Made by a program: the position numbers and the translations under genes. Positions 175 to 44,803 of a stretch of 64,000 nt of DNA are shown here, piece after piece. The stretch comes from an uncultured Fibrobacterota bacterium (GTDB lineage: Bacteria > Fibrobacterota > Chitinivibrionia > Chitinivibrionales > FEN-1185): NCBI GenBank assembly GCA_963753345.1, contig CAVWBU010000021.1, positions 128,001 to 192,000 on the forward strand. Reading direction: 5' to 3'. Under the pieces are notes generated by a model. It saw nothing but the letters and a program-made list of their open reading frames with translations, searched no databases and was not told where the DNA came from. Numbering within the stretch: position 1 is the first letter of the stretch; each line of letters starts with the position of its first letter.

Positions 175-245
175 CAGACCATGTTTTTATCCTTGCACTG
201 CCTCCTCTGGATTTCATACCTCCGCCTCGTGTATTTTAAGCCTTC

Positions 246-659
246 ATGAAATCACCCCTGCACGAGTTCTCCATGCCCGTCACCGTCGAGTTCGAGGACG
301 TCGATTCGTATAAAATTGCGCATCACGCCAGGCTTGTCTCGTACCTGGAGCGCGCGCGGGTGCGGTACTTTACGACCCTGGGGTTCGATCTTTCCGCCGA
401 AGACATGACCGTGGTGCTGTACCACCTGGAAATGAATTTCAAGAAGCCCGCGTTCTTCCAGGACAGCCTGACGGTCTCGGTTTCCCTCAAATCGTTTGAC
501 AACTACCGCATGGTGTTGTATTATAAAATCCGCAGGGACAAGGACCTTATCGCGCGGGCTTCCACGGGCCTCTGCTTTGTGGACCCGAAAAACAAGATCA
601 TGATTCCCGCGCCGGACAAGTACGTTGAGAAAATCAACGCGCTCCTGTCAACTCATTAA
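246..659 (+). CDS. Acyl-CoA thioesterase (YbgC/FadM hot-dog family)
   Basis: V.FEDVDSYKIAHHA..VSYLERAR motif, 137 aa. Confidence 0.85.
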   Translation: MKSPLHEFSMPVTVEFEDVDSYKIAHHARLVSYLERARVRYFTTLGFDLSAEDMTVVLYHLEMNFKKPAFFQDSLTVSVSLKSFDNYRMVLYYKIRRDKDLIARASTGLCFVDPKNKIMIPAPDKYVEKINALLSTH

Positions 660-679
660 CATTCAGGATTTTCCGCGTC

Positions 680-1888
680 ATGGCTGATTCGATCGTCATT
701 ACCGGCCTTGGTCTTGTTACCGGACTGGGCCTTAATTGTTCCTCGTGCTGGAAGGCGCTCGTTAGCGGCAGCAATCCCGTGAAGCGCTTCTCCCTGTTCG
801 ATACCAAGGGTCTCACCAGCGATTTCGGTGTTGAGCTGCCACCGGAGGCGGAAGGGCTTTTCTCTTCCATAAAGCCGCGGAGCCGGTCGCAGATGACCCG
901 CGCCACCATGATCTCGGTGGTCACGGCCGAAATGGCAATTGCCGACGCAGGCCTTGCGCAAAGCGGAATTGACGCTGCGCGCATCGGGGTTATTACCGGC
1001 GCGACAGGCACCGGATATTTCTGGGACAAACCCGGCAAGGACGAGCACCGGATCCTGAGGAACATGGCCAACGCGTCGTCGTCGTGGATAAGTTTGCGCA
1101 ACAAGTACCGCGGCCCGTCGTACACCGTGAGCACCGCCTGCTCCTCCGGCGCGTACGCGTTGGCCGGCGCCATGGACCTGATCTTGACCGGCCAATGCGA
1201 TGCCGTTGTCGTGGGCTCCGCGGATTCGTCGATCAACTACGCGGACGTCGAGGGATTCCAGAGCATCATGGCCCTCTCCGAGGAAAAGGACGACATGCAG
1301 CACGCGAGCCGGCCGTTCGACGCGAAGCGCAGCGGCTTCGTGATGGGCGAGGGCGGGGGCATGCTTGTTGTCGAATCGGAAGACCATGCCAAGAAACGCG
1401 GCGCGAAACTATACGGTCGCATGTTCCGTCCCGGTCTGTCGAGCGAGGCATACAACATGCTTTCACCGCAGCCCGGCGGAACCGGCATGGCCCTCGCCAT
1501 GCAACGCGCGCTCGACAACGCGCAGCTTTCACCCGCCGACATCGACTACATCAATGCGCACGGCACGTCGACCGGGTACAACGACGTGTACGAGACCCAG
1601 GCGATCAAGACGGTCTTCGGGACCGCGGCTGCATCGATTCCTGTGTCGTCAACAAAGCCGCAGACCGGTCACTGCCTCGCGGGCGCCGCGGGCGTGGAGG
1701 CCGTGATTGCCGTTCTGTCGCTGTGCGAAAACATCGTGCCCGCGACACTCAACCTGCGAAACCCCGATCCGCAATGCGACCTGGACTACGTCCCCAACCG
1801 GTGCCGCGCAAAGCAGCTTGACGCCGTGATGTCGAATTCATTCGCGTTCGGCGGCCACAACGGCGTGTGCGTGTTCGCCAGGCTATGA
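680..1888 (+). CDS. fabF: Beta-ketoacyl-ACP synthase II
   Basis: STACSS (Cys), INAHGTST (His), GHCLAG (His), SNSFAFGGHN C-terminus. Confidence 0.9.
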   Translation: MADSIVITGLGLVTGLGLNCSSCWKALVSGSNPVKRFSLFDTKGLTSDFGVELPPEAEGLFSSIKPRSRSQMTRATMISVVTAEMAIADAGLAQSGIDAARIGVITGATGTGYFWDKPGKDEHRILRNMANASSSWISLRNKYRGPSYTVSTACSSGAYALAGAMDLILTGQCDAVVVGSADSSINYADVEGFQSIMALSEEKDDMQHASRPFDAKRSGFVMGEGGGMLVVESEDHAKKRGAKLYGRMFRPGLSSEAYNMLSPQPGGTGMALAMQRALDNAQLSPADIDYINAHGTSTGYNDVYETQAIKTVFGTAAASIPVSSTKPQTGHCLAGAAGVEAVIAVLSLCENIVPATLNLRNPDPQCDLDYVPNRCRAKQLDAVMSNSFAFGGHNGVCVFARL

Positions 1889-7433: not shown

Positions 7434-7611
7434 GGCGGAGCGCAAAAGCCGCTCTTTGGTTTCGATTATGTATATTATTCAGCGGCCTTGGTTCACAGCG
7501 CCCTTTCGGTTGAAGCGTGTAGATTCAAGACATGAGAACAATTGACAAGTACCGTTGACTCCTGACAATCTACATTCTACAATTTTGAAAAACGATAGGA
7601 CACATTGTTTC

Positions 7612-8907
7612 ATGAAACCCATTCCCATCATCAACCTTTCCAGCTCCTCCGGCAAACGAATGCTCCGCCGCATCAGCGAATCCCGGCAGGCGCGCGAAGG
7701 CCGCGCGCAGGAGGTCGTGGCAAAAATTCTTGCCGACGTGCAAAGGCGCGGCGACTCGGCGCTGTTCGCGTATTCAAGGAAATTCGACGGCACCCTGGTT
7801 TCGGGCAGGACAATACGGGTTTCCCGCGCGTACATTCGGGCTCGCGCGCGTCTCGCACCCGCTGCATTCAGGCGCTCATGCGCAGAGGCGGCAAAGCACA
7901 TCCGCGCGTATCACGAAAGGCAGAAGCCCTGCGTTTTCAGCATGCGGACTGCGGAGGGCGAGCTGTCCCAGATCGTGAGGCCGGTCCGGCGCGCGGGCGT
8001 GTACGTTCCGGGCGGACACACGTTGTATCCGTCAAGCGTGCTCATGAACGTGATTCCCGCGCAGATCGCGGGCGTTTCCGAAATCGCGGTCGCGACCCCG
8101 CCCAGGGGCGAGCTCGATCCGGGCATTGCATTTGCGCTCGATCTGCTCGGTGCGTACGAAGTCTACCGCATGGGCGGCGCCCAGGCGGTTGCGGCGTTTG
8201 CGTACGGGACAAAGAGTGTTCCCGCGGTTGACAAAATCGTAGGCCCCGGCAACCTGTATGTCGCGCTTGCAAAGAAGGCAGTATACGGCACAGTGGACAT
8301 CGACGCGGTGGCCGGCCCCAGCGAGGTGATCATACTTGCCGACAAATCGGCAAATCCCGCGTGGGTGGCGCTCGACCTTCTTGCCCAGGCCGAGCATGGC
8401 AGCGGCGACGAGACCGCCTTCTGCGTTACCGAAGACGCTGCGTTCGCCCGCCGCGTGCAGGCCGCGGTCGCGGCCGAAATCCGAAGGTCGCCGGTGCGTA
8501 CGGTTTTTGAAAAACTCGGCCCTTTCTCGCTCTGCATCTGCCTCGGCCGCAGCCGCACTCAAAGTATAGACTTTGTCAACCAATGCGCTCCCGAGCATTT
8601 GGAAATAATGACTGCCACCTGCAAACAAGACCTCGCCCTGGTCCGCAACGCTGGCGCGATTTTTCTCGGTCCGTATTCGCCTGTCGCTCTGGGCGATTAT
8701 TTCGCGGGCACCAACCACGTGCTGCCCACGGGCGGCGCCGCGCGCTTCGCCTCGGGCCTGGGCGTGGAGAGCTTTGTCAAGCGCATGTCCGTCGCTTGCA
8801 TCAATAAAGAAGGACTTCGCAGTGCGGCAGGCCACGTGTCGGTGCTTGCGAGGGCGGAGGAGTTTGTCCACCATGCGAGGAGTGTCGAGCGGAGAGCAAG
8901 GGCATAA
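7612..8907 (+). CDS. hisD: Histidinol dehydrogenase
   Basis: [33 protein letters not shown]. Confidence 0.95.
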
Positions 8908-8920
8908 TATCTAAATACAG

Positions 8921-9243
8921 TTGGGCGTTCCCCCCTGAAGAGCCGCACTGCCGAGCGGCTCTTCAGGGGGGTCGGTTCCACCCCTCCGGGTGCTTCGAGG
9001 CGTCGTCCTTCCGGTCCACCCCTTCGGGTGCTTCTCCCTCGTCAGGGATTTCCAAGGGTCACAAGGGTCGTCGGCCTTCGGCCTCGGGCCATCTAATTGC
9101 AGAATGTAGATTGTAGAATGTAGATTTGAAATGCGAAGACCAACCGGAATGTTTTTTCAATCTACAATCATCAATCTAAAATCTACAATTAAGAGTCCGG
9201 GCGGCATCCCGCTTTGGCGGGACCTCCAGTCGCCCCTAACGCG
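8921..9243 (+). repeat. Repeat family B, copy 2 (expanded by an internal heptamer hairpin)
   Basis: TTGGGCGTTCCCC...GGGTCGG...CCTCCAGTCGCCCCTAACGCG, with GTAGATT/AATCTAC arrays at 9096-9190. Confidence 0.85.
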
Positions 9244-9397
9244 AAAGTCAAAAAACGGAAAACTGACAAAAGGTAATTAAAAATTGGGAACAGGGTGTGG
9301 ATGGATTTATTTTGATCAGTAAGGCAATGCTTTAGTAAAAACCGCTCGCGCCTGGCGTTTGAAGATGGATGCTTATCATATCAAATAGGATCCGTTC

Positions 9398-12300
9398 ATG
9401 AACTACAACCTCGATCCTATCCGCGATTTGGTCAAGAGATTCTCTCAAAACAAGGAATCCTACTCCGCCGCCTCCTACAACGAGACCCAGCTCCGCCAGG
9501 AATTCCTCAACCCGTTCTTCGAAGCGCTCGGCTGGGACGTTGCGAACAAGCAGGGCTTTGCCGAAGCGTACAAGGAAGTCATCCACGAAGACGCGGTAAA
9601 GGTCGGAACCGCGACCAAGGCGCCCGACTATTCCTTCCGGGTGGGAGGGACGCGCAAGTTCTTCGTGGAGGCGAAAAAGCCTTTTGTAAATATCAAAGAT
9701 GATATCAGCCCGGCTTTTCAGCTCCGCCGCTACGCATGGTCGGCAAAGCTGCCGCTTTCGGTGCTCACCGATTTCGAAGAGTTCGCGGTGTATGATTGCA
9801 GGCTCAAACCGGTCAAGACCGACAAGGCAAGCATCGGACGAATCCTTTACATAAAGTATGATGAATACGAAAAACGCTGGGAAGAAATAGCGTCTATCTT
9901 CTCGAAAGATGCGGTCCTCAAAGGATCGTTCGACCGGTATGCCGAAACAAACAGGGCGAAAAAAGGGACCACCGAGGTAGACGATTCGTTCCTTTCCGAA
10001 ATAGAGAACTGGCGCGACATGCTCGCGCGCAACATAGCGATCCGCAACGAAAAGCTTTCCACGCGCGAACTCAACTTCGCGGTCCAGCGCACCATCGACC
10101 GCCTTATCTTCCTGCGCATCTGCGAAGACCGCGGCATAGAAGATTATGGCAGGCTCCAATCACACCTGAACGGCGAAAACGTTTACAAGCGGCTTTGCGT
10201 TCTTTTCCGCGAAGCGGACGACCGGTACAACTCTGGCATTTTCCATTTCCGCGAGGAAAAGGGACGAGAGGAAACGCTTGACAGCACGACGCTTTCGCTC
10301 GACATAGACGATAAAGTGCTCAAGGAGATAATCGAGAACCTGTACTACCCCGAAAGCGCATATGAGTTTTCAGTCTTGCCCGCCGACATCCTGGGCCAGG
10401 TATACGAACAATTCCTGGGCAAGGTGATCCGCCTTACCACCGGGCACCAGGCAAAAGTAGAAGATAAGCCGGAGGTGAAAAAGGCAGGCGGCGTTTTTTA
10501 TACGCCGACGTACATTGTGGACTACATTGTAAAGAATACGGTGGGCAAGCTGCTTGAAAATAAAACCCCTTGGGAAGCTGAAAAACTTCGCATTCTTGAT
10601 CCTGCTTGCGGGTCAGGGTCCTTCTTGATAGGTGCTTATCAATATTTGTTGGATTGGCACCGTGATTGGTACACTAAGAACTGGCATGAGAAGTGGTGCT
10701 ATGGCAAGAATCCAAGGCTATATGAAGCACGGGAAAAGGAGTACCGGCTCACAACGCCAGAACGAAAAAGGATATTGCTCAACAGCATCTACGGCGTTGA
10801 CATTGACACACAGGCAGTGGAGGTTACGAAATTATCGCTTTTGCTGAAAGTACTTGAAGGGGAGAATGAGCAGAGCATCGCACAACAGTTAAAATTATTC
10901 CATCAGAGAGCTTTGCCGGATTTGGGGAATAATATTAAGTGCGGGAATTCTTTGATAGGAATGGATTTTTATGACGGTGTTCAGGAAACAATGTCGCTTT
11001 ATGAGGATGCCGAAATTGAAGATCGGATCAAGGTAAATGCGTTTGATTGGGATATGAAACACGGTTTTCAGGATATTATGAGGAGCGGGGGATTTGATGC
11101 GGTGATTGGGAATCCGCCGTATGGGGCTCAAACTTTCCAAGAAAAGCCGAAACTGAAGTTACCATTCTATAGAAACCATTATAAGCTGCCAAAGTTGGGT
11201 CAATTAGGACTTCTTATGTAATTGTTTATTGAAAGCGGTATTGACCTTACTCAGAAGTAAAAAGGGCTATTTGGGCTATCATTATTCCAGCCTCGTAGTT
11301 GTCTAAGGCGAAAGTATACATGCCATCAGCGCGAATTCATCCAAGTGGGAAGCATTAGTCGCAGTATAATGCATTTCGATGACCATTAGATATTTGAAAG
11401 TGCATACTACAGACACGTGATAATTGTTTTTCCTTAACTAAAGACCAAATGCAGATCCATTTTGTTTTCTAAAGAAAAGATGTAGATAAATGGATAACTC
11501 AAAGCATAGCCTAAAGATGTAGATCAAAGCTGACAGCATAATGGATAGGAATGGAGTTTTACCACAGGAAGAAATTCGGTTTTGTTCGAAAAGTTAAAAC
11601 CTTCCTTCGAAGCAAAAGAGATGTCGACAGATAAGATATTCCAAGGCCTTGTTACAATTGGTGATCTTTATACTTATTGGAAGAAATAGAATAATTGGCA
11701 AGATCCATGTGAGAGTAAACTCTTGGCGACAGCCAAACTCATATAAATCGGAAAGACAGGTTGTTCTACCTCTGTTCAAAGGATCCTGATATCCGAGGTA
11801 TTCTGCAACAACTACCAAACGAGAGATTTTTCCACACGATTTAGAAGCCTAAGATCTAACTGGCAAAGTTACAAGAATTGCACAATCGAATTTCGCAAAA
11901 TATTATCCCAATACGTGGAACTATCTAAACGAGAACGATGATTTCTTGCGGAACCGAGAAAAAGGGAAGATGAGACATGAAGGGTGGTATGGTTACATTT
12001 ATCCTAAAGGCATTGCATTGTTTGCAGAGAAGAAGATATTAACTCCTTCTATTGCCGCTACAGCTTCCTTTACGCATTGATAAAGACGGCGAATTGTACT
12101 TTGTGGGTTCGGGCACGCAATGACGGTGGTGGATATGGGCTATTCGCTCTAAAAAGCGGTGTGGAATTCGAGTATGCGTATCTTCTTGGCTTGCTGAATT
12201 CAACACTCCTTGATGTTGTTGCCTCAAGCTGATAAGATCTTGATTTAGAGGCAGCTATTATGCATAACCGTCATACATTGAACGACTGCCAATAACTCGA

Positions 12301-12535
12301 ATGACTTCTCAATATCTCTCACAAATTGTTTCGCTGCAAAATATTGTTTCCCTCGTCTCCTCCATGCTCTCCCTCCACCAAGAACTTTCCCTTGCCAAGA
12401 CCGATCAGGAAAAAATCGTCCTCCAGCGCCAGATCACCTCCACCGACAGCCGCATCGACGCTCTCGTCTACACAACTCTACGGCCTCACCGAAGAGGAAA
12501 TCAAAATCGTCGAAGGCGCCGGCGAAGGGAAATAG
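9398..12535 (+). pseudogene. Type IIG (Eco57I-like) fused restriction endonuclease/N6-adenine methyltransferase; TRD region broken by many indels
   Basis: APDY..VEAKK nuclease motif, ILDPACGSGSF, IGNPPY; open to about 11130, fragmented after; C-terminal IDALVY/LYGLTEEEIKIVE tail ends at 12535. Confidence 0.8.
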
Positions 12536-12574
12536 AACTTCGGTTCTTCCGGGCAACCAATTCCGCTGGCTGCA

Positions 12575-12680
12575 GATTGCTTCGCGGAGTTTATCCCGAG
12601 CTCTGTCGAGGGGCTCGCAGTGACACTTTTCTCTCTTCAATCCGCATTCCGCAATCCCAGCCCTGAGCTTTGTCGAAGGG
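12575..12680. repeat. REP-like mosaic (GATTGCTTCG...CTCGCAGTGAC with two CCYGAGC..GTCGA.GG hairpins)
   Basis: CCCGAGCTCTGTCGAGGG at 12595 and CCCTGAGCTTTGTCGAAGGG at 12661; related motifs at 26292-26326 and inside B copy 6. Confidence 0.55.
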
Positions 12681-12700
12681 ATCAATCCACAATTCTCTCT

Positions 12701-12842
12701 TGGTGCCCCCGCAGCAGAAGTTTCTTTCTTGCAGACCAACTTGCTTGGGGGCTACCCAGAGGGGGCAGCGCAGGACCGGCGCGGAATAACGTGAACTTTG
12801 AAAATATGAGCGACGGGCCGAAGCGAGGGGGAGACTTCCCCC
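12701..12842 (+). repeat. Repeat family A, copy 3
   Basis: GGTGCCCCC...GGGGGCTACCCAGAGGGGG...AGCGAGGGGGAGACTTCCCCC. Confidence 0.85.
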
Positions 12843-12896
12843 TGTAAATGATATTGATTTTGGAGAATGTTAAATGAAAGAGGATTGATTTTAAGG

Positions 12897-12970
<74 letters not shown>

Positions 12971-12982
12971 CCAAAAATAAAA

Positions 12983-13059
12983 TGGAGCGAGAGACGGGAT
13001 TTGAACCCGCGACGGCCACCTTGGCAAGGTGGAGCTCTACCAGTCTGAGCTACTCTCGC
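12983..13059 (-). tRNA. tRNA-Gly (GCC)
   Basis: GCGAGAGTAGCTCAG...CACCTTGCCAAGGTG...GGTTCAAATCC...CTCGCTCCA. Confidence 0.95.
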
Positions 13060-13133
13060 TTGCTTGGACGATAAAGATACTTTATTGAAGAACCCGGCTG
13101 CAAGCTGCGGGCTTGCGTTTTCCCGCTGAGCGG

Positions 13134-13418
13134 CTACGGATTCCTTCCCGTGGGGTTCCAGCTCTGCGCCGTGGTGAAGAGCAGCACGATAAACGCCATG
13201 GTACCTATGGCAAGCGCCACGAATTTCCCGTATTCAACTTTTCTCTTGACGATCTTGATCTTCCCGGCCGATCCCCGGCCGACCGTGTCCGCCGCGTGCC
13301 TGGAGGAGTCTGCGGCCAGGGAGTCGCGGCGCGGGGTAATCGGCGTTCCGAACGATATCTGGCAATAGCCCGGCCAAGCGATTGACGCAAGGATAAGAAA
13401 CGCCGCGAGCCGTCTCAT
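13134..13418 (-). CDS. Small hypothetical membrane protein
   Basis: Signal-like N-terminus, C-terminal TM helix, ATGA overlap with the gatB stop. Confidence 0.55.
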   Translation of the reverse strand: MRRLAAFLILASIAWPGYCQISFGTPITPRRDSLAADSSRHAADTVGRGSAGKIKIVKRKVEYGKFVALAIGTMAFIVLLFTTAQSWNPTGRNP

Positions 13419-14856
13419 GCCGTCCCCTTGCCCAACAGCTCGGCAACCAGCTTGCTGATCTCTTTCGGGTTGCCCTTGCCTCCCGTGGCTCTCATAACCT
13501 GCCCCACAAAGAACCCCGCAAGCTTTGTCTCACCTGCAGTGTACCGCTGCGCCTCCTTCGGGTTCTTTGCCGCAATGTCCTTCACGACCTTCGACAGTTC
13601 GGCAGAATCGGAAATCTGCGACAGTCCCTGTTCTTTGATTATTGTGTCCGGATCTTTGCCATGATCTTCCATGTCATCGAGTACTTTTTTGGCTGCGTTG
13701 GCGGAAACTGCGCCCGTTGACACCAGCGTGAGCAATCTTCCAAAGGCCATCGGCGTAACCCTGGCCTTGAAACCGTCGATTCCAATCTTTTTTTCCTTGA
13801 CGATTCTAAGCACTTCGCCCATCACCCAGTTGGCAACGAGTTTCGCATCTTTACAGAAAGCGAGCGCGTCTTCAAAATAGCGGGCAACCGCGGGTTCCAG
13901 GGTAAGCACCTCCGCCATGTAGGCGGTGACGCCGAAGTCGGCAATAAATCTTGAGCGTTTTTGTGCGGGCAACTCGGGCATGTCTTTCTTGATCGTTTCG
14001 ATCCACGCCGGCTCAACCACGAGCGGCAGGAGGTCGGGCTCCGGGAAATAGCGGTAATCGTGCGCCTCTTCCTTGGTGCGCATGGCAACGGTCCGGTTAC
14101 TGTCCGGGTCCCACCGGAACGTCTGCTGTACGATAGTCTCGCCCGACAGCACGGCCTCGCGCTGCCGAAGGGCCTCGTAGGCGAGGGCCTTTTCCACGCC
14201 GCGGAAGGTGTTCATGTTCTTGAGTTCGATCTTGGTGCCGAGTTTTGTTTCGCCCGCGGGCCGTATCGAGATGTTGGCGTCGCAGCGGAGGCTGCCCTCC
14301 TCCATGTTGCAGTCGCATATGCCGAGATAGCCGAGGATCTGCTTGATGGCCGAAAGATACGCGTAGGCTTCCTGCGCGGTTCGCAAGTCCGGCTCGCTCA
14401 CGATTTCGATGAGCGGCGTGCCGCAGCGGTTGACGTCGAAGAGCGAGTCTTCATCCTGGTCGTGGATGAGTTTCCCGCGTCCTCTTCGAGGTGGATGCGG
14501 TTGATGCGGATGGTCTTCTTCCTTCCGTCAACCTCTATCGCCACCGATCCGCCGGCGCACAGCGGCATGTCGTACTGGGAGATCTGGTAGCCTTTCGGGA
14601 GGTCGGGGTAGAAGTAGTTCTTCCTTGCGAAAATGGAATTGCGCGCAATGGAGCAGCCCACGGCCAGCCCCATAAGAATGGTCATTTCCACGGCGCGGCG
14701 GTTGAGCACCGGCAGCGAACCGGGAAGCCCGAGGCACACCGGGCAGCCGTGCGTGTTGGGCGCGTCGCCGAATTTCGGAGCGCACCCGCAGAAGATCTTC
14801 GTTGTCGTGAGAAGCTCGGCGTGTATTTCGAGGCCGATGACGGTTTCAAATTCCAT
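13415..14856 (-). CDS. gatB: Asp/Glu-tRNA amidotransferase subunit B (1-nt frameshift near 14472)
   Basis: [56 protein letters not shown]; one A missing in AGKLIH. Confidence 0.95.
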
Positions 14857-18463: not shown

Positions 18464-18492
18464 GATTATTTCCTATTTTTGTAATTAAAGAC

Positions 18493-18635
18493 TTGGGCGT
18501 TCCCCTCTCTTCGCTCGGGTCGGTTCTCCTTCCGGTCTCGGCCTTCGGCCTCCGGCCGCCTCGGCCCTAGGCCGCTGTAGCGGCGGGTCCAGGCGGCACC
18601 GCGCTCCAGCGCGGCCTCCAGTCGCCCCTAACGCG
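18493..18635 (+). repeat. Repeat family B, copy 4
   Basis: TTGGGCGTTCCCC...GGGTCGG...CCTCCAGTCGCCCCTAACGCG. Confidence 0.85.
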
Positions 18636-18792
18636 CAGCAGAGGAATTCTATTCAGTCAAGTTATATCTATGCGCCAACCCAAGTTTCTATTGAGATTGT
18701 TTAGATTTTCTTCTTGAACTACTCAGCTCCTCCACTTTTCAACTCTTCAACGATTCAACTTCTCAACTTCTCAACATCTCAACTCTATTTCT

Positions 18793-18942
18793 CGGTGCCC
18801 CCGCAGCCGAAGATTCTTTCTTGCAAATCAACTCTCTAGGGGGCTACCCACGAGGGGGTGTGGGTGCCAATGTCGAGACGTTGGATTTTTGGCATTGGTT
18901 TTGAGTCTCGACATGGCACCCCAGGGGGACCCTTCCCCCACC
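18793..18942 (+). repeat. Repeat family A, copy 4
   Basis: Same GTCGAGAC/GTCTCGAC middle-hairpin subtype as copy 2. Confidence 0.85.
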
Positions 18943-18945
18943 AAA

Positions 18946-19560
18946 TTACTCATTCTTCTTATCACCATATGAAATTTCCACCCTCTCATGAAGCGCCTGA
19001 TTGAGCGTCATCTGATCTATGTATTCCAGCTCGGTTCCCGCGGGCACGCCGCGCGCGAGCAGCGTGATCTTGAGGTGCATGCCGGAAAAAATGCGGGCCA
19101 GGTACAGGCAGGTGGTCTCGGCTTCCGCGCTGGCCCCGAGCCCGAGGATAAGCTCCTTGACGCCGCCCGCGTCGAGCCGCGCCTTCAGCTCCGAAAGGTG
19201 CAGCTTGTCGGCGGTAATGCCGTTGATGGGCGAGAGCACGCCGCCGAGCACATGGTACAGGCCGCGGAAGATCCCGGACTTTTCGAACACGAGCACGTCC
19301 TGCGGTTTTTCCACCACGCAGATCACCGACGAATCGCGCGAGGTTGACGAGCACACGTCGCACAGTTCGGCAGTGCCGTAGTTGAAGCACCGTTTACACA
19401 CGGTGATCTTCGATTTGATGCCGGCGATGCACTGCGACAGGGTGTCGAGCTCGGCCTGGGGCCGCTCCAGAAGATACAGCGCGAGCCGCAGCGCGGTCTT
19501 CCTGCCGATGGTGGGCAGCCGGCAGAGCGCGTCAACGAGGCTGTCGAGCGGTTCGATCAT
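18946..19560 (-). CDS. recR: Recombination mediator RecR
   Basis: LPTIGRKTALRLA, C4 zinc finger, ICVVE, YHVLGG Toprim domain. Confidence 0.93.
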   Translation of the reverse strand: MIEPLDSLVDALCRLPTIGRKTALRLALYLLERPQAELDTLSQCIAGIKSKITVCKRCFNYGTAELCDVCSSTSRDSSVICVVEKPQDVLVFEKSGIFRGLYHVLGGVLSPINGITADKLHLSELKARLDAGGVKELILGLGASAEAETTCLYLARIFSGMHLKITLLARGVPAGTELEYIDQMTLNQALHERVEISYGDKKNE

Positions 19561-28330: not shown

Positions 28331-28420
28331 TAATGGCCTCCATGGATTTGGTTGCGTGATATTACTCAATTATATCCTGGTTCCGGCAGATTGTCGATGA
28401 TATCAAAATAAAGAAAAGAG

Positions 28421-28590
28421 TTGGGCGTTCCCCTCGCTGCACTCGGGTCGGTCCACCCCTTCGGGTGCTTCCAAGGGTCGTCCCTCCGGTCTCGGGCTCG
28501 CCCTCGGGCCGCCTCGGCCCCTATGCCGGCGTACCGGCGGGGTCCGGGCGGCATCCCGCCATAGCGGGACCTCCGGTCGCCCCTAACGCG
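28421..28590 (+). repeat. Repeat family B, copy 5
   Basis: TTGGGCGTTCCCC...GGGTCGG...CCTCCGGTCGCCCCTAACGCG. Confidence 0.85.
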
Positions 28591-28691
28591 CGGCAGAGGA
28601 AGTCTTATCAGTCAACTACTTTATCTTGCGCCAATTGGTATCCGGAAATCGGGGCTTCTTCAATATGTTTTCTACTTTTCAACTGCTCCTC

Positions 28692-28837
28692 GTGGGTGCC
28701 GCCACAACAATGCATAGTCTTGCAGCTGCTTTATCAAGGCGGCTACCCTAGAGGGGGTAGCGCAAGACCGGCGCGGAATGCGGTGAACTTTGATGATGTG
28801 AGCGCCGGGCCGCAGCGAGGGGGAACCTTCCCCCGCC
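28692..28837 (+). repeat. Repeat family A, copy 5
   Basis: Close to copy 1, including the GCCGCC/GGCGGC stem variant. Confidence 0.85.
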
Positions 28838-28928
28838 TAAATCATTGCTTTATGACTTTTGTCGAAATATCACCCTGGCGATAATCGAAAACTCAAGAAT
28901 AGAGGAAGATGGTGATGAAGGGTGGCCA

Positions 28929-31407: not shown

Positions 31408-31561
31408 TTGGGCGTTCCCCTCCCCCTCGACTTCGCTCGGGGTCGGGTCGGCCCTCCTTCCGGTCTCGGCCTTCGGCCTCGGGCTGCCACGGCCGTATGC
31501 CGCTTCGCGGCCGGTCCGGGCAGCACCGTGCTCTAGCACGGCCTCCAGTCCTGCCTAACGC
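31408..31561 (+). repeat. Repeat family B, copy 6
   Basis: TTGGGCGTTCCCC...GGGTCGG...CCTCCAGTCCTGCCTAACGC. Confidence 0.85.
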
Positions 31562-31662
31562 AGCGCATGCGGGATTCTTATCAATCAAATATTTCTTCTC
31601 ACGCCAAACTGCATTCGCAGACATCAGCCAAGATTACTTTCTTTGCTTTTCAACTACTCTAC

Positions 31663-31814
31663 GTGGGTGCCCCCCAACCGAAGCAACTTTCTTGCAAATC
31701 AACTTCCTTGGGGGCCACCCAAGAGGGGGTAGCGGAGGACCGGTCGCGCACCTCCGGGATACTTGTTTGTAAAGCGGCGCGGCCGGGCCGCAGCGAGGGG
31801 GAGTCTTCCCCCGC
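31663..31814 (+). repeat. Repeat family A, copy 6
   Basis: GGGTGCCCCCC...GGGGGCCACCCAAGAGGGGG...GCGAGGGGGAGTCTTCCCCC. Confidence 0.85.
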
Positions 31815-31904
31815 ATGAATGCTTTTCTTATTGCATCTGATAAAACCTATTTTATCAACGCATACACACATATTCGCATTCACGCATTCACCTCGGAGTT
31901 CCAC

Positions 31905-42115: not shown

Positions 42116-44803
42116 ATGTCACGACACGAGACCTCCGTCAAATTTCTTGAGTCCAGGCTCAACGAGAACCCGCAGTCGCTCGTTTTCTCCCGTCTTGCCG
42201 ACGGCATCCGCGAAAGCGGAGATATCCAGCAGGCGATCTCGGTGTGCATGGATGGCCTCGCCCGTCACCCGGACTGTCTCACGGGCAGGGTGGTTCTGGG
42301 ACGGTGCTACCTGGAGCAGGAAAACCTCAAGGAGGCTGCCGCCGAGTTCGTGGCGGTGCTCAAACTTGACAGACGCAATCACACCGCGATCAAGATGATC
42401 GCCGACATCTGCGCGCGCCAGGGACTCAAGGAAAAGGCCGGGGATCTCTACGCGAGCCTGCTCGGCATGGACCCGGACAACCAGTCGCTCGTCGAGCTTG
42501 CCAGCACGTTCCGCGGAACAGGCGATACCGACCTTTTCAGCATCCTTGGCATGTCATCCGTCGCCGGCAGGGTGGCCGTTGCGCCTGCGCCGGCGGCCGA
42601 CGACACGATTGCCGACGCCGACAGGACCATAGAGTTTGACGTGGAACCGAGCCGGGCCGCGGCTTCCGCAGGGGAGGATACCGAGGTCGGCGAAATGATG
42701 GCAAAGACGCAGCAGTTCGATCCGAAGGATCTCGGTGTGGCCGACAGGGCTCATGATGACACGGTGCTGACTTCAGACGTGCTCACCGGAGACGATGTGA
42801 GCTCGCGCATGGAGACGATGTTCGACATCGGCCCGGAAACCCCGCCTGCCGCAGCGCCGGAAGTGCACGAGCACATTGAGCTCGGAAGCGGTGATGAAAC
42901 CCTGGGCCCCGCCGACGATGCGGCCGCAGGAACGGTCAGGGGCGAAGAAGCGGGGGTCGTGTCGGGAAGCGACATCACCTCGCGCATCGAGCAGCTGTTC
43001 GGCGAAGAGACGCCGGTGTCTCCGCCTGAACCGACTGTTGCCGAGGCCCCAACCAGGGAAGTTGCGCGCGACGAGTTACGGCCCGTGGAGTCTTCGGCGC
43101 TTTCCGGAGAAGACATCACCTCGCGGCTCAACGAAATGTTCGAGGGCGAGCCTGCCATCGAACCTTTGGCGGAAGACACGCTGATGGAAAAACCGGTCTT
43201 GCCGGCCGACACCAAGGTTGGACCGCTTCTTGAGATCGAGGCAGAGGCGCCGGCCGGGACCGTCACGGGCGCTACGGAGGAGATTGTCCTGGGGCCGCGG
43301 GAGCCGGCGCGGCATCCCGCCGAGGAAACCGTGCTTTCCGGCGACGACGTGGCGCTGAGGCTCGATACGATATTTGACGAAGGGGAAGAAGCCGGGCCGC
43401 CCGCAAACGAAGCGGTCGCGACGCAGTCTGCGGAGGCGACCGATTTATCCACAGCCGACGGCGACAAGACACAGACCGCCGAGACGTTCCGCGCGGGAGA
43501 GGACACGAAGCCGCCGTTTGACATAGAGGAAGCCGGCGTTGTCGTCGACGAGGTGGGCTTTGACGCCGCGTCCGAGACGCTGGTGGTCGAGGAGGCGGGA
43601 AAGTCCTCTCAGGCTGCTGCTCCGCAGGAGCCGCCCGAGGCTCCCGATGCCCCCATCATCATCGACGACGCAGTTGTGGCCGAGGAGGAGCAGGAGTCTG
43701 AGTCCGGCATGTCCGGAGACGACGTGGTTGGACGCATGGAGGAGATATTCACCGAGGAGCCTGGTTCGGGAGGAACTGCCGCGCCGGCAGCACCTGCAAA
43801 GGAAGAAGCGGCAATGCATCTTGACTTTATCCCGGTGACCGAAGAGGAAGCCGGGACGGCCGGAGAGCCCAGTACTGCGCCGACCGATGTTGACAAAACA
43901 GATATCGCGGCCCCGGAATCGGACACGCTTGACCTTTCGGGCGAGACGGAGGAGCGGACGATTCTCATGGACGAGGACAGCGGCGCGGAGACAATGCCGG
44001 CCGAAGAGGAAACCATGGTGACCGGAGGGGAAGATGAGACCATGGTGGCCAGAACCGAAGCCGAGACCCTTCCTTCCGAGGCCGAGGCTGAAACCATGCC
44101 TGCCGAAGCTGAGGCTGAGACCATATCGGCCGGAGGGGAAGATGAGACCATGGTGGCCAGAACCGAAGCTGAGACCCTTCCTTCCGAGGCCGAGGCTGAA
44201 ACCATGCCTGCCGAAACTGAAGCTGAGACAATGTCGGCCGGAGCCGAAGCTGAGACTATGGCCGTTGAGGACGAAGCTGAGACCATGGTTTGGTCCCGTT
44301 CGGACCCGTTTCTGGATTCCCCGTTCCGCACCGGCTCGAAAACAGGAACTGGCGCACCGAAGGAAACGGAAAGCGTTACTCCGCGGGATTCTGAACAGGA
44401 CATTTTTACGGATCAGGAAAAAGGGGCGGGCGCGGAGTCGGATCAGGCCTTTTCCATTCCCGACCACGTGCTCACGCCGACCCTCGCCGACATCTATTAT
44501 CAGCAGGGGCAGCCCCGGCTCGCGCTGCAGATTTTCCGGCGGCTCCTTGACGCGGACCCGGACAACGAACGCATTGCGAAACGCATCAGGGAAATAGAGG
44601 CCGGCCTCAACGCCGACATCGAGCCGGCAGGTGTCGAGGAAACCGTGGTGACGACGCCCACCCCCAAGGGGGACGTGAAGCCGCCCGCCCAAAGGGTAAA
44701 ACCGAAGGTTGACAAAAAGAAAAAGGCGGCCGCTGCGGAAAAACCGCTTTCCGGCGTGCGCATCAGGAAGAAAGCCAAGACCAGGCGCAGGAAGACGAGG
44801 TGA
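42116..44803 (+). CDS. Large acidic protein with N- and C-terminal TPRs and internal repeats
   Basis: TPR-like N-terminus, E/D/T/A-rich linker, TPTLADIYYQQG TPR, basic tail. Confidence 0.75.
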   Translation: MSRHETSVKFLESRLNENPQSLVFSRLADGIRESGDIQQAISVCMDGLARHPDCLTGRVVLGRCYLEQENLKEAAAEFVAVLKLDRRNHTAIKMIADICARQGLKEKAGDLYASLLGMDPDNQSLVELASTFRGTGDTDLFSILGMSSVAGRVAVAPAPAADDTIADADRTIEFDVEPSRAAASAGEDTEVGEMMAKTQQFDPKDLGVADRAHDDTVLTSDVLTGDDVSSRMETMFDIGPETPPAAAPEVHEHIELGSGDETLGPADDAAAGTVRGEEAGVVSGSDITSRIEQLFGEETPVSPPEPTVAEAPTREVARDELRPVESSALSGEDITSRLNEMFEGEPAIEPLAEDTLMEKPVLPADTKVGPLLEIEAEAPAGTVTGATEEIVLGPREPARHPAEETVLSGDDVALRLDTIFDEGEEAGPPANEAVATQSAEATDLSTADGDKTQTAETFRAGEDTKPPFDIEEAGVVVDEVGFDAASETLVVEEAGKSSQAAAPQEPPEAPDAPIIIDDAVVAEEEQESESGMSGDDVVGRMEEIFTEEPGSGGTAAPAAPAKEEAAMHLDFIPVTEEEAGTAGEPSTAPTDVDKTDIAAPESDTLDLSGETEERTILMDEDSGAETMPAEEETMVTGGEDETMVARTEAETLPSEAEAETMPAEAEAETISAGGEDETMVARTEAETLPSEAEAETMPAETEAETMSAGAEAETMAVEDEAETMVWSRSDPFLDSPFRTGSKTGTGAPKETESVTPRDSEQDIFTDQEKGAGAESDQAFSIPDHVLTPTLADIYYQQGQPRLALQIFRRLLDADPDNERIAKRIREIEAGLNADIEPAGVEETVVTTPTPKGDVKPPAQRVKPKVDKKKKAAAAEKPLSGVRIRKKAKTRRRKTR
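44022..44237 (+). repeat. Intragenic tandem duplication, 2 x 108 bp built from 27-bp units
   Basis: CCGGAGGGGAAGATGAGACCATGGTGGCCAGAACC... at 44022 and 44130. Confidence 0.9.

Follow-up and report, generated by a model that had tools for sequence, protein, structure and literature searches.

The interval between hisD and tRNA-Cys in the window, the whole 64,000 nt stretch of DNA analysed here, holds a Type IIG restriction-modification (R-M) gene flanked by two intergenic repeat modules, designated B and A. The source genome (G000) is compared below with five other genomes of the same genus (G001 to G005). From hisD to gatB, the region comprises the following features:

7555..8907, + strand: hisD, encoding histidinol dehydrogenase (Pfam Histidinol_dh; e-value: 1.6e-144), the conserved left neighbour
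8921..9243, + strand: B module, a genus-specific intergenic repeat, by alignment to four tight B-A units
9091-9193, nested within the B module: small palindromic repeat of family D5, unlike B
9244..9397, + strand: unique leader 5′ of the R-M gene, in common with G002
9398..11221, + strand: open N-terminal 607 aa of the Type IIG R-M gene, with the nuclease domain and first methyltransferase half
11222..12340, + strand: decayed middle and target-recognition part of the R-M gene (tblastn against full-length relatives), with nine stops and frame changes
12341..12535, + strand: conserved C-terminal end of the R-M gene, changing frame once at ~12472 (frames 2 and 3 by tblastn)
12574..12697, + strand: small dispersed repeats, with copies on contigs C49, C19, C15, C28 and C39
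12698..12842, + strand: A module with complete 3′ end (merged BLAST coordinates)
12897..12970, - strand: tRNA-Cys (GCA) (ARAGORN; Rfam tRNA, 66.9 bits)
12983..13059, - strand: tRNA-Gly (GCC) (ARAGORN; Rfam tRNA, 63.8 bits)
13415..14856, - strand: gatB, the conserved right neighbour, in two frames in this assembly

The hisD gene is matched in 30 of the 31 related genomes. The layout originally predicted for this region, in which B, a Type IIG gene with its start at 9398, a group of small repeats and A follow one another and 54 nt separate A from tRNA-Cys, is borne out by the unit profile, BLAST and ARAGORN; as tRNA-Cys is encoded on the minus strand (12897-12970), it is its 3′ end that is found 54 nt from position 12842. 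By comparison with a profile derived from 154 B-A units of this genome, B covers 8903-9090 (profile positions 72-161) and 9194-9243 (positions 189-238), and A covers 12686-12873 (positions 350-525) by the profile and 12698-12842 by BLAST. Both modules are on the + strand and follow, as had also been claimed, the same order as in empty units, here the tight units at 18487-18950, 28415-28853 and 31408-31831. Downstream of the gene, the repeats at 12574-12629 and 12636-12697 have copies with 94-97% identity elsewhere on other contigs, and the motif at 12634-12656 is also present within the spacer of at least four tight B-A units, in identical orientation. The 165 nt stretch 12536-12700, for which small REP-like hairpins had been described, folds as one no better than its shuffles (z = -0.32). 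A second copy of the leader (9244..9397) was sought in the genome and none was found. Scans of 8800-13150 returned nine promoter sites (5.4 ± 2.2 in shuffles) and six terminator sites (5.8 ± 2.6 in shuffles), with no excess of either, and at the Rfam gathering thresholds B and A are unmatched, the only matches being the two tRNAs and an SRP RNA.

The open part of the R-M gene matches the PADLOC model REase_MTase_IIG (PDLC03604; e-value: 3.8e-172) over model positions 10-562 of 1011 and contains the Pfam domains Eco57I, MmeI_Mtase, N6_Mtase and HSDR_N. The last of these, at residues 61-135 (e-value: 1e-10), provides the N-terminal PD-(D/E)xK-type nuclease, with PDY at residue 76 and EAKK at 91, which we take to be the catalytic nuclease motif. 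DPACGSGSF is located at 401 and NPPY at 572, with N6-adenine methyltransferase motifs I and IV (NPPY) occurring in the same chain as the nuclease. The PD...EAK region, motif I, NPPY and a C-terminal end like that of full-length relatives are held in common with Type IIG enzymes of the Eco57I/MmeI-like kind, from which this gene differs in that its second half is broken, making it a relic rather than a working member. What had been read as a single R-M gene at 9398-12535 is not one frame. The open frame closes at 11221, 35 residues past NPPY, nine stops fall in the first frame (11219, 11258, 11387, 11435, 11483, 11495, 11507, 11531 and 11546), and homology to full-length relatives is distributed by tblastn over frame two (11751-12074), frame three (12223-12471) and the first frame again (12473-12532), amounting to at least three frame changes. 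No continuous frame of ~1000 aa through the later methyltransferase motifs and recognition domain is found in the gene. The ancestral gene would have encoded an N-terminal PD-(D/E)xK nuclease, an N6-adenine methyltransferase with NPPY and a C-terminal target-recognition part, and the present gene is probably the relic of such a single-chain Type IIG enzyme, dead in this genome; this grading applies to the preferred explanation as a whole, including the history proposed below.

The R-M gene is furthermore a mosaic of a well-kept N-terminal 1.8 kb, an unrelated and heavily decayed recognition segment and a conserved C-terminal end, with the join falling just after NPPY. In G001, whose hisD shares 92% identity, DNA homology is found at 10987-11127 (91%) and 12340-12733 (78%), with no DNA match between 11127 and 12340. 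The C-terminal end (12341..12535) shares 78% DNA identity with G001 and 80% with G002, and the C-terminal 320 codons are open and stop-free in G001. The decayed segment (11222..12340; 39% GC) has no close intact counterpart by tblastx against all collected loci, the best match being 53% over 93 aa. Contigs of two public runs, X1 and X2, diverge in their letters beyond 11123, and one X1 contig shows two differences in 568 nt against 10544-11111. The public run with the best coverage of 11222-12340 contains 45% of the sampled words, and the bins at 11248-12267 are without cover in the four public runs compared.

R-M-linked rearrangements, including substitution at a locus and chance insertion between repeated sequences, as well as recognition-domain substitution in Type IIG genes, are described by Furuta, Abe and Kobayashi (2010; PMC2853133). 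As in those cases, flanks that can be aligned between relatives enclose an interval with different content (radical-SAM gene or R-M gene), the gene lies between dispersed repeats, and near-identical alleles differ in the recognition segment. The repeats depart from those cases in being no duplicated target but a pair of unlike modules from a structured family of very high copy number. We infer that the mosaic arose through exchange of alleles and recognition domains, as is known for Type IIG genes, and the locus offers a clear example of such turnover in an uncultured Fibrobacterota lineage.

The broken state could alternatively originate in the assembly, if the real gene were open and 11123-12340 belonged to a different strain or species, spliced into this contig where the NPPY and C-terminal stretches are conserved. 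The genome was assembled from a metagenome, with 94% completeness and 4.8% contamination, contigs near-identical up to 11111 continue differently past 11123, and gatB contains a frameshift which the contigs of all four public runs do not show. Of the two gatB ORFs, one carries GatB_N positions 1-133 and the other positions 151-277 together with GatB_Yqey (Pfam); gatB is single-frame in relatives, an extra T follows 14476 in the contigs of 4/4 public runs, and the split is likely an indel error in this assembly, which serves as a warning of small errors of this type. At 12474/12475 the contigs of two public runs are one base shorter, and the last frame change of the R-M relic may be another such error. 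The nine stops in ~110 codons are, however, of the substitution type, unlike the single-base error in gatB, while the copy at this locus in G002 is broken as well, by an internal deletion, and G001 has a 5′-cut piece. Even under a false join, moreover, a closely related strain would have to carry a dead allele at this locus. We regard it as quite improbable, and genuine decay of the gene as the better reading. Contig joints running from 9243 to 12698 in the four public runs were also considered as empty sites and rejected, with a shorter side of 21-40 letters and unknown letters in between; these most likely derive from other B-A copies.

Many phyla contain relatives of the R-M gene, with identities of 55-84% (of 346 candidate stretches, 303 were confirmed), and the sole other match in the source genome is a 36% paralog. 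In G003, G004 and G005 a B12-type radical-SAM gene is located in the same interval, in place of the R-M gene, and no ortholog of it is present in the source genome (best match: 37%). The G003 interval also harbors a BrnT/BrnA pair beside the tRNA 3′ end, and G005 encodes two full-length open homologs of the R-M gene without a B...A frame. In G002 the interval lacks A and consists of B, a deleted relic of the R-M gene, a helix-turn-helix (HTH) gene and a B in inverted orientation; G001 has a C-terminal part of the gene in an open frame, together with a truncated A and likewise an inverted B. A 5′-cut piece of the gene is found in G001 on a contig without link to this locus, and no exact overlap was found between the G001 contigs C258 and C406. 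The right flank therefore varies, with A in the source genome, truncated A and inverted B in G001, and HTH gene and inverted B in G002, while the source genome and G001 agree from the end of the gene through the small repeat and spacer motif into the beginning of A. None of the five same-genus genomes has an empty B-A unit at this locus, one of the states for which a comparison of relatives had been suggested. An R-M gene at this locus lacking both B and A, named originally as an observation that would speak against capture, is realised by half, as the G002 relic has B and no A.

The source genome and G002 have an identical B/leader junction. Across 9198-9778 the two share 84% DNA identity, above the 69-75% measured for five core genes on the flanks (66% for SPOR), and third-codon-position identity is 0.69 in the R-M gene and 0.48-0.56 in four core genes. 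Similarly, the leaders are 74% identical with three gap columns, as opposed to 26-45% for four other orthologous intergenic regions. By these sequence comparisons the R-M relic appears to be horizontally acquired and younger than the split between the two genomes. The original prediction of a horizontally acquired defence gene beside tRNA-Cys in a variable interval is thus in agreement with the PADLOC match, the relatives in many phyla and the radical-SAM gene in three genomes. The R-M gene would have arrived by horizontal transfer into the changeable hisD-tRNA-Cys interval, may there have replaced the radical-SAM gene, and would at a later step have died in this genome.

B and A represent the halves of a ~400 nt repeat seen only in one Chitinispirillaceae-like genus, with the family present in four of the five other same-genus genomes and, as a single weak match, in one of 25 further relatives. 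The source genome contains 354 B loci and 252 A loci (counted at ≥70 nt) and 166 tight B-A units, and the repeats as such are far beyond chance. Interspersed intergenic repeats of the REP/BIME type form the comparison class for B and A, which resemble them in their high copy number (hundreds of copies), modular arrays, a small repeat nested inside a different one and confinement to a single genus, and differ from them in the much greater length of the B-A units (~400 nt) and the two unlike halves. As members of a family with hundreds of sites in the genome, B and A are arranged around the R-M gene in a way that looks ordinary. Adjacent module pairs 1-5 kb apart number 176, just three of which are in B-then-A order, and solo A/B pairs at this distance show the B-then-A same-strand order in 3/20, where five are expected if the four orders are equally likely. 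A gene between B and A in this order is therefore not beyond chance.

B and A are high-copy repeat modules between genes, the placement seen in the examined copies, and the explanation which we hold, as a whole, to be probable is that they neither carried nor captured the R-M gene. The capture of a defence gene in the slot of a B-A element, as proposed originally, finds no support in the order of the modules, which is not enriched at gene-sized gaps, in the flanks, which vary, or in the G005 homologs and the related loci elsewhere, where B and A are absent in 80/80. Nor do other B...A intervals show the suggested enrichment for defence genes, with PADLOC matching none of the seven ORFs in the five others that hold ORFs; in four of these five, ORFs are on the opposite strand. 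The locus would as such be a routine case of a dead acquired restriction gene in a changeable interval, in a genome where the repeats flank many genes, and a worked control indicating that this unusual repeat family is not a cargo carrier at gene scale.

Shorter gaps behave differently. Eight of nine solo A/B pairs at 300-1000 nt are in B-then-A order, an enrichment which counts against the preferred explanation; three of these gaps, 604, 751 and 786 nt in length, hold ORFs, from which it follows that small inserts between B and A do occur. It is possible, though unlikely, that an ordinary B-A unit once filled the hisD-tRNA-Cys gap and that an R-M cassette, made up of the leader, the gene and ~30 nt downstream, entered its spacer, which would have been either neutral DNA that happened to be available or a favoured break point. 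In profile coordinates, the B side ends at 238 and the A side, preceded by the spacer motif, begins at 350, so that the two sides sum to one unit. The B/leader junction common to G002, the order from gene end to A start common to G001, and the enriched 300-800 nt inserts (8/9 solo A/B pairs) point in the same direction. However, solo copies elsewhere in the window end alike, B at 246-287 and A from 318-350, and matching ends are thus expected in any case. A is furthermore absent in G002, an inverted B lies beside tRNA-Cys in both G001 and G002, an empty unit is found at the locus in none of the five same-genus genomes, and the older state of the interval was likely the radical-SAM gene and not a bare repeat. 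Taken together, the relatives favour an apparent piecemeal turnover of B and A modules over insertion into an older B-A unit. The break of the B and A sides at usual module boundaries, with the spacer motif kept with A, is an observation that fits insertion into one older unit too.

The known kind nearest to the capture idea, with two element ends and one passenger gene, is the mobile insertion cassette, in which transposon ends surround passenger genes without a transposase. B and A differ from such ends in being different sequences in direct order, not inverted copies, and there is no second composite, the right end moreover differing in relatives (no A in G002, a cut A in G001). Inverted insertion-sequence ends were not found at B or A, nor was the same composite detected at more than one site or as a presence/absence difference with intact ends between relatives. 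B and A might still be the ends of a non-autonomous mobile element with the R-M gene as passenger, given their strong linkage in fixed order and orientation in 166 tight units and a leader that abuts the B end in two species. This appears very improbable when the composite is present once, with the 36% paralog as the only other genome match, and when two full-length open homologs in G005 and 80/80 related loci are without B and A frames. In addition, a Pfam transposase family is represented in none of the long ORFs of the five other B...A inserts, and the right end in G002 is not A.

It is likewise highly unlikely that an integrase-driven element used the tRNA-Cys 3′ end as its attachment site. 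The interval at the tRNA 3′ end does vary by species, as exemplified by the BrnT/BrnA pair in G003 and the HTH gene in G002. A search of 8800-12880 for a second, directly oriented copy of the 3′ portion of the tRNA, as would be expected at the far edge of such an element, however, gave a best match of 10 nt (e-value: 0.27), which lies within B. Since B, the relic, the small repeats and A take up the 3.9 kb interval 8908-12896, there is no space in it for an integrase gene, and none was found.

A bolder reading, which we consider rather improbable, is that the B 3′ boundary constitutes a reusable joining point for accessory cassettes between members of the genus, either through shared homology or by acting as a site for recombination. 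Downstream of the B motif CCTAACGCG, the R-M cassettes of the source genome and G002, younger than the two genomes themselves, begin at an identical base, and the 300-800 nt inserts between B and A are enriched. If true, the repeat family would supply docking sites for foreign genes and play a role in gene exchange. The recently shared segment of these two genomes starts exactly at the B 3′ boundary, which under the preferred explanation is a coincidence. In the alignment of 154 B-A units, the outer flanks are rich in A to the left of the unit and in T to its right.

The interval between hisD and tRNA-Cys in G000, the genome of the window, carries a Type IIG R-M gene between B and A, the two modules of an intergenic repeat, in the following arrangement:

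hisD, ending at 8907 (Pfam Histidinol_dh)
B module, starting 14 nt after hisD (profile match in segments 8903-9090 and 9194-9243)
9091-9193, small palindromic repeat nested in the B module beside hisD
9398, ATG of the Type IIG R-M gene (PADLOC, Pfam)
12574-12629 and 12636-12697, small dispersed repeats 3′ of the R-M gene, with copies 94-97% identical on other contigs
12686-12873, A module (profile positions 350-525; 12698-12842 by BLAST)
12897-12970, minus strand, tRNA-Cys
13415-14856, minus strand, gatB, in two frames in the assembly and one frame in relatives

The profile was built from 154 tight units (B followed by A on the same strand) of the G000 genome. The order B, R-M gene, small repeats, A and tRNA-Cys, as given in the original prediction, is borne out, as is the 54-nt distance between the A end at 12842 and the tRNA-Cys 3′ end. 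The window has six copies of the palindromic repeat (9091-9193, 21774, 22482, 36652, 41199 and 47040), which is rich in TGTAGAT-like words.

The frame from 9398 encodes a Type IIG restriction-methyltransferase (PADLOC PDLC03604; E 3.8e-172; model positions 10-562 of 1011), matches the Pfam families Eco57I, MmeI_Mtase, N6_Mtase and HSDR_N, and is open up to 11221, giving 607 aa with an NPPY motif at residue 572. Nine stops fall in the same frame within 11219-11546, beyond which likeness to full-length relatives passes via two other frames, with the last 20 codons back in the first. The earlier reading of one intact gene at 9398-12535 is thus incorrect. The GC content of the relic is 39% at 11222-12340, but the second half of intact relatives is also GC-poor (41% in G001 and in a G005 copy), and because these drop likewise, low GC is a property of the gene's second half rather than a mark of decay.

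Among the same-genus genomes compared (G001 to G005), the gene order ech, ech, hisD ... tRNA-Cys/Gly, gatB, SPOR-domain gene, radical-SAM gene is common to G002, G003 and G005, while the contents of the interval vary:

G003 (L024 4855-8764), FloA flotillin-like gene, 209-aa ORF, B12-type radical-SAM gene, and BrnT/BrnA toxin-antitoxin pair adjoining tRNA-Cys
G004, B12-type radical-SAM gene 3′ of hisD
G005, B12-type radical-SAM gene immediately 3′ of hisD
G000, without an ortholog of this radical-SAM gene (best match 37%)
G002, left part, hisD, then B and, as in G000, the leader with the first 127 codons of the R-M gene (92% aa)
G002, right part, internal deletion, 285-aa C-terminal ORF, HTH gene, inverted B and tRNA-Cys, without A
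G001, tRNA-Cys contig, beginning within the open C-terminal part, then small repeat, spacer motif, first 47 nt of A, inverted B and tRNA-Cys
G001, hisD contig, ending 2 nt past the hisD match

These other contents at the same locus uphold the view that the R-M gene came in as cargo at a variable interval, and it has since decayed. The empty B-A unit sought between hisD and tRNA-Cys in relatives was found in none of the same-genus genomes compared. The tRNA-Gly/tRNA-Cys pair has the reverse orientation in G005 (L023 6132-6900) compared with G000, G002 and G003, with B-module fragments on either side, which suggests inversion between repeats.

The cassette, consisting of the leader (9244-9397) and the R-M gene, is younger than the G000 and G002 genomes, judging from its divergence. 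DNA identity between the two is 84% in the cassette (9198-9778) versus 66-75% in six flanking core genes; third-codon-position identity is 0.69 in the R-M gene (127 codons) versus 0.48-0.56 in four core genes; and the 154-nt leader is 74% identical with 3 gap columns, where four other orthologous intergenic regions give 26-45%. This raised identity argues that, once the species had split, gene and leader were exchanged within the genus or drawn from a shared pool. Its start coincides with the final bases of B (motif CCTAACGCG), and the end of hisD lacks it. A role for the B boundary in the exchange is improbable, kept alive by one observation, namely that the cassette adjoins B at the same junction in both genomes.

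The R-M gene is furthermore a mosaic, with breakpoints just past NPPY and where the conserved C-terminal end begins. Two stretches of the window, 10987-11127 (91%) and 12340-12733 (78%), match DNA of G001, the nearest compared genome (hisD 92% identical), with no match between them, and the C-terminal 320 codons of the G001 gene are open. Public metagenome contigs are near-identical to the window until 11111 (2 differences in 568 nt), and those of two public runs diverge to other letters past 11123. This agrees with the substitution of recognition domains that PMC2853133 reports for Type IIG genes, with the difference that the resident segment of the relic is dead. The mosaic could also, though improbably, stem from a chimeric join in the metagenome assembly, in favor of which both public runs that cover the relic's last frame change lack it, and a single-base frameshift in gatB is not shared by contigs of 4/4 public runs, all of which carry an extra T behind 14476. 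The gatB split is probably an assembly indel and calls for caution over other frameshifts in the G000 assembly.

Two full-length open homologs of the mosaic gene are found in G005 (1018 aa, 83%; 972 aa, 78%), both at other loci and without a B...A frame. The 1018-aa frame lies beside ahcY (L119, C27, 5931-8984), and G001 has a 5′-cut piece of the same family that begins near residue 531, at the end of a contig (L121, C258, 3789-4255); the family therefore occupies several loci within the genus. A second Type IIG gene of G000 (L122, G000:C47:58000-72000) has an open 1052-aa frame, 36% identical to the relic, with an inverted B module ~2.2 kb 3′ of it.

Capture of the R-M gene in a B-A slot, as originally proposed, is not supported. 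None of 80 related loci in other genomes has B or A, and none is located at hisD/tRNA-Cys. Among 176 adjacent module pairs 1-5 kb apart, only 3 are same-strand B-then-A, the commonest order being A-then-B (60 pairs), i.e. unit, gene, unit. When limited to solo modules, the only ones able to give B...A, the count is 3/20 (7, 3 and 7 for the three other orders), and gene-sized B...A order shows no excess over chance. At 300-1000 nt B-then-A is in excess (8/9 solo pairs); five of these gaps are spacer expansions of 302-350 nt and three (604, 751 and 786 nt) contain ORFs. The five other ORF-bearing B...A intervals (604-1894 nt) encode predicted surface/secreted proteins and a split HD-domain ORF, with weak or absent Pfam matches, and in 4/5 the ORFs are opposite in strand to B-A. 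The anticipated enrichment of defence genes did not appear there, with PADLOC matching 0/7 ORFs. The HD-domain gene (L131, G000:C32:77816-78950, 228-793, minus strand) comprises two overlapping ORFs (98 and 90 aa) and may be a further broken gene or a further assembly indel.

B and A beside the relic are ordinary occupants of intergenic spaces in G000. With four copies of each half as queries, BLAST located 422 B and 265 A loci (356 and 252 of at least 70 nt); the next element is a same-strand A for 185 of the 356 B loci, with a gap of at most 300 nt in 166 (the tight units), a median gap of 99 nt and a unit length of ~400 nt. One unit as DNA query gave matches in G000 and 4/5 other same-genus genomes and one weak match among 25 further relatives, and an Rfam search gave none. 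Within the hisD to tRNA-Cys interval the longest repeat of the tRNA 3′ part is 10 nt and there is no room for an integrase. The locus fits the kinds of R-M turnover described in PMC2853133, namely substitution, a position between repeats that arose by chance, and swapping of the recognition domain. Elsewhere in the window, a 27-nt tandem repeat in eight copies (repeat family D1) occupies 44000-44296.
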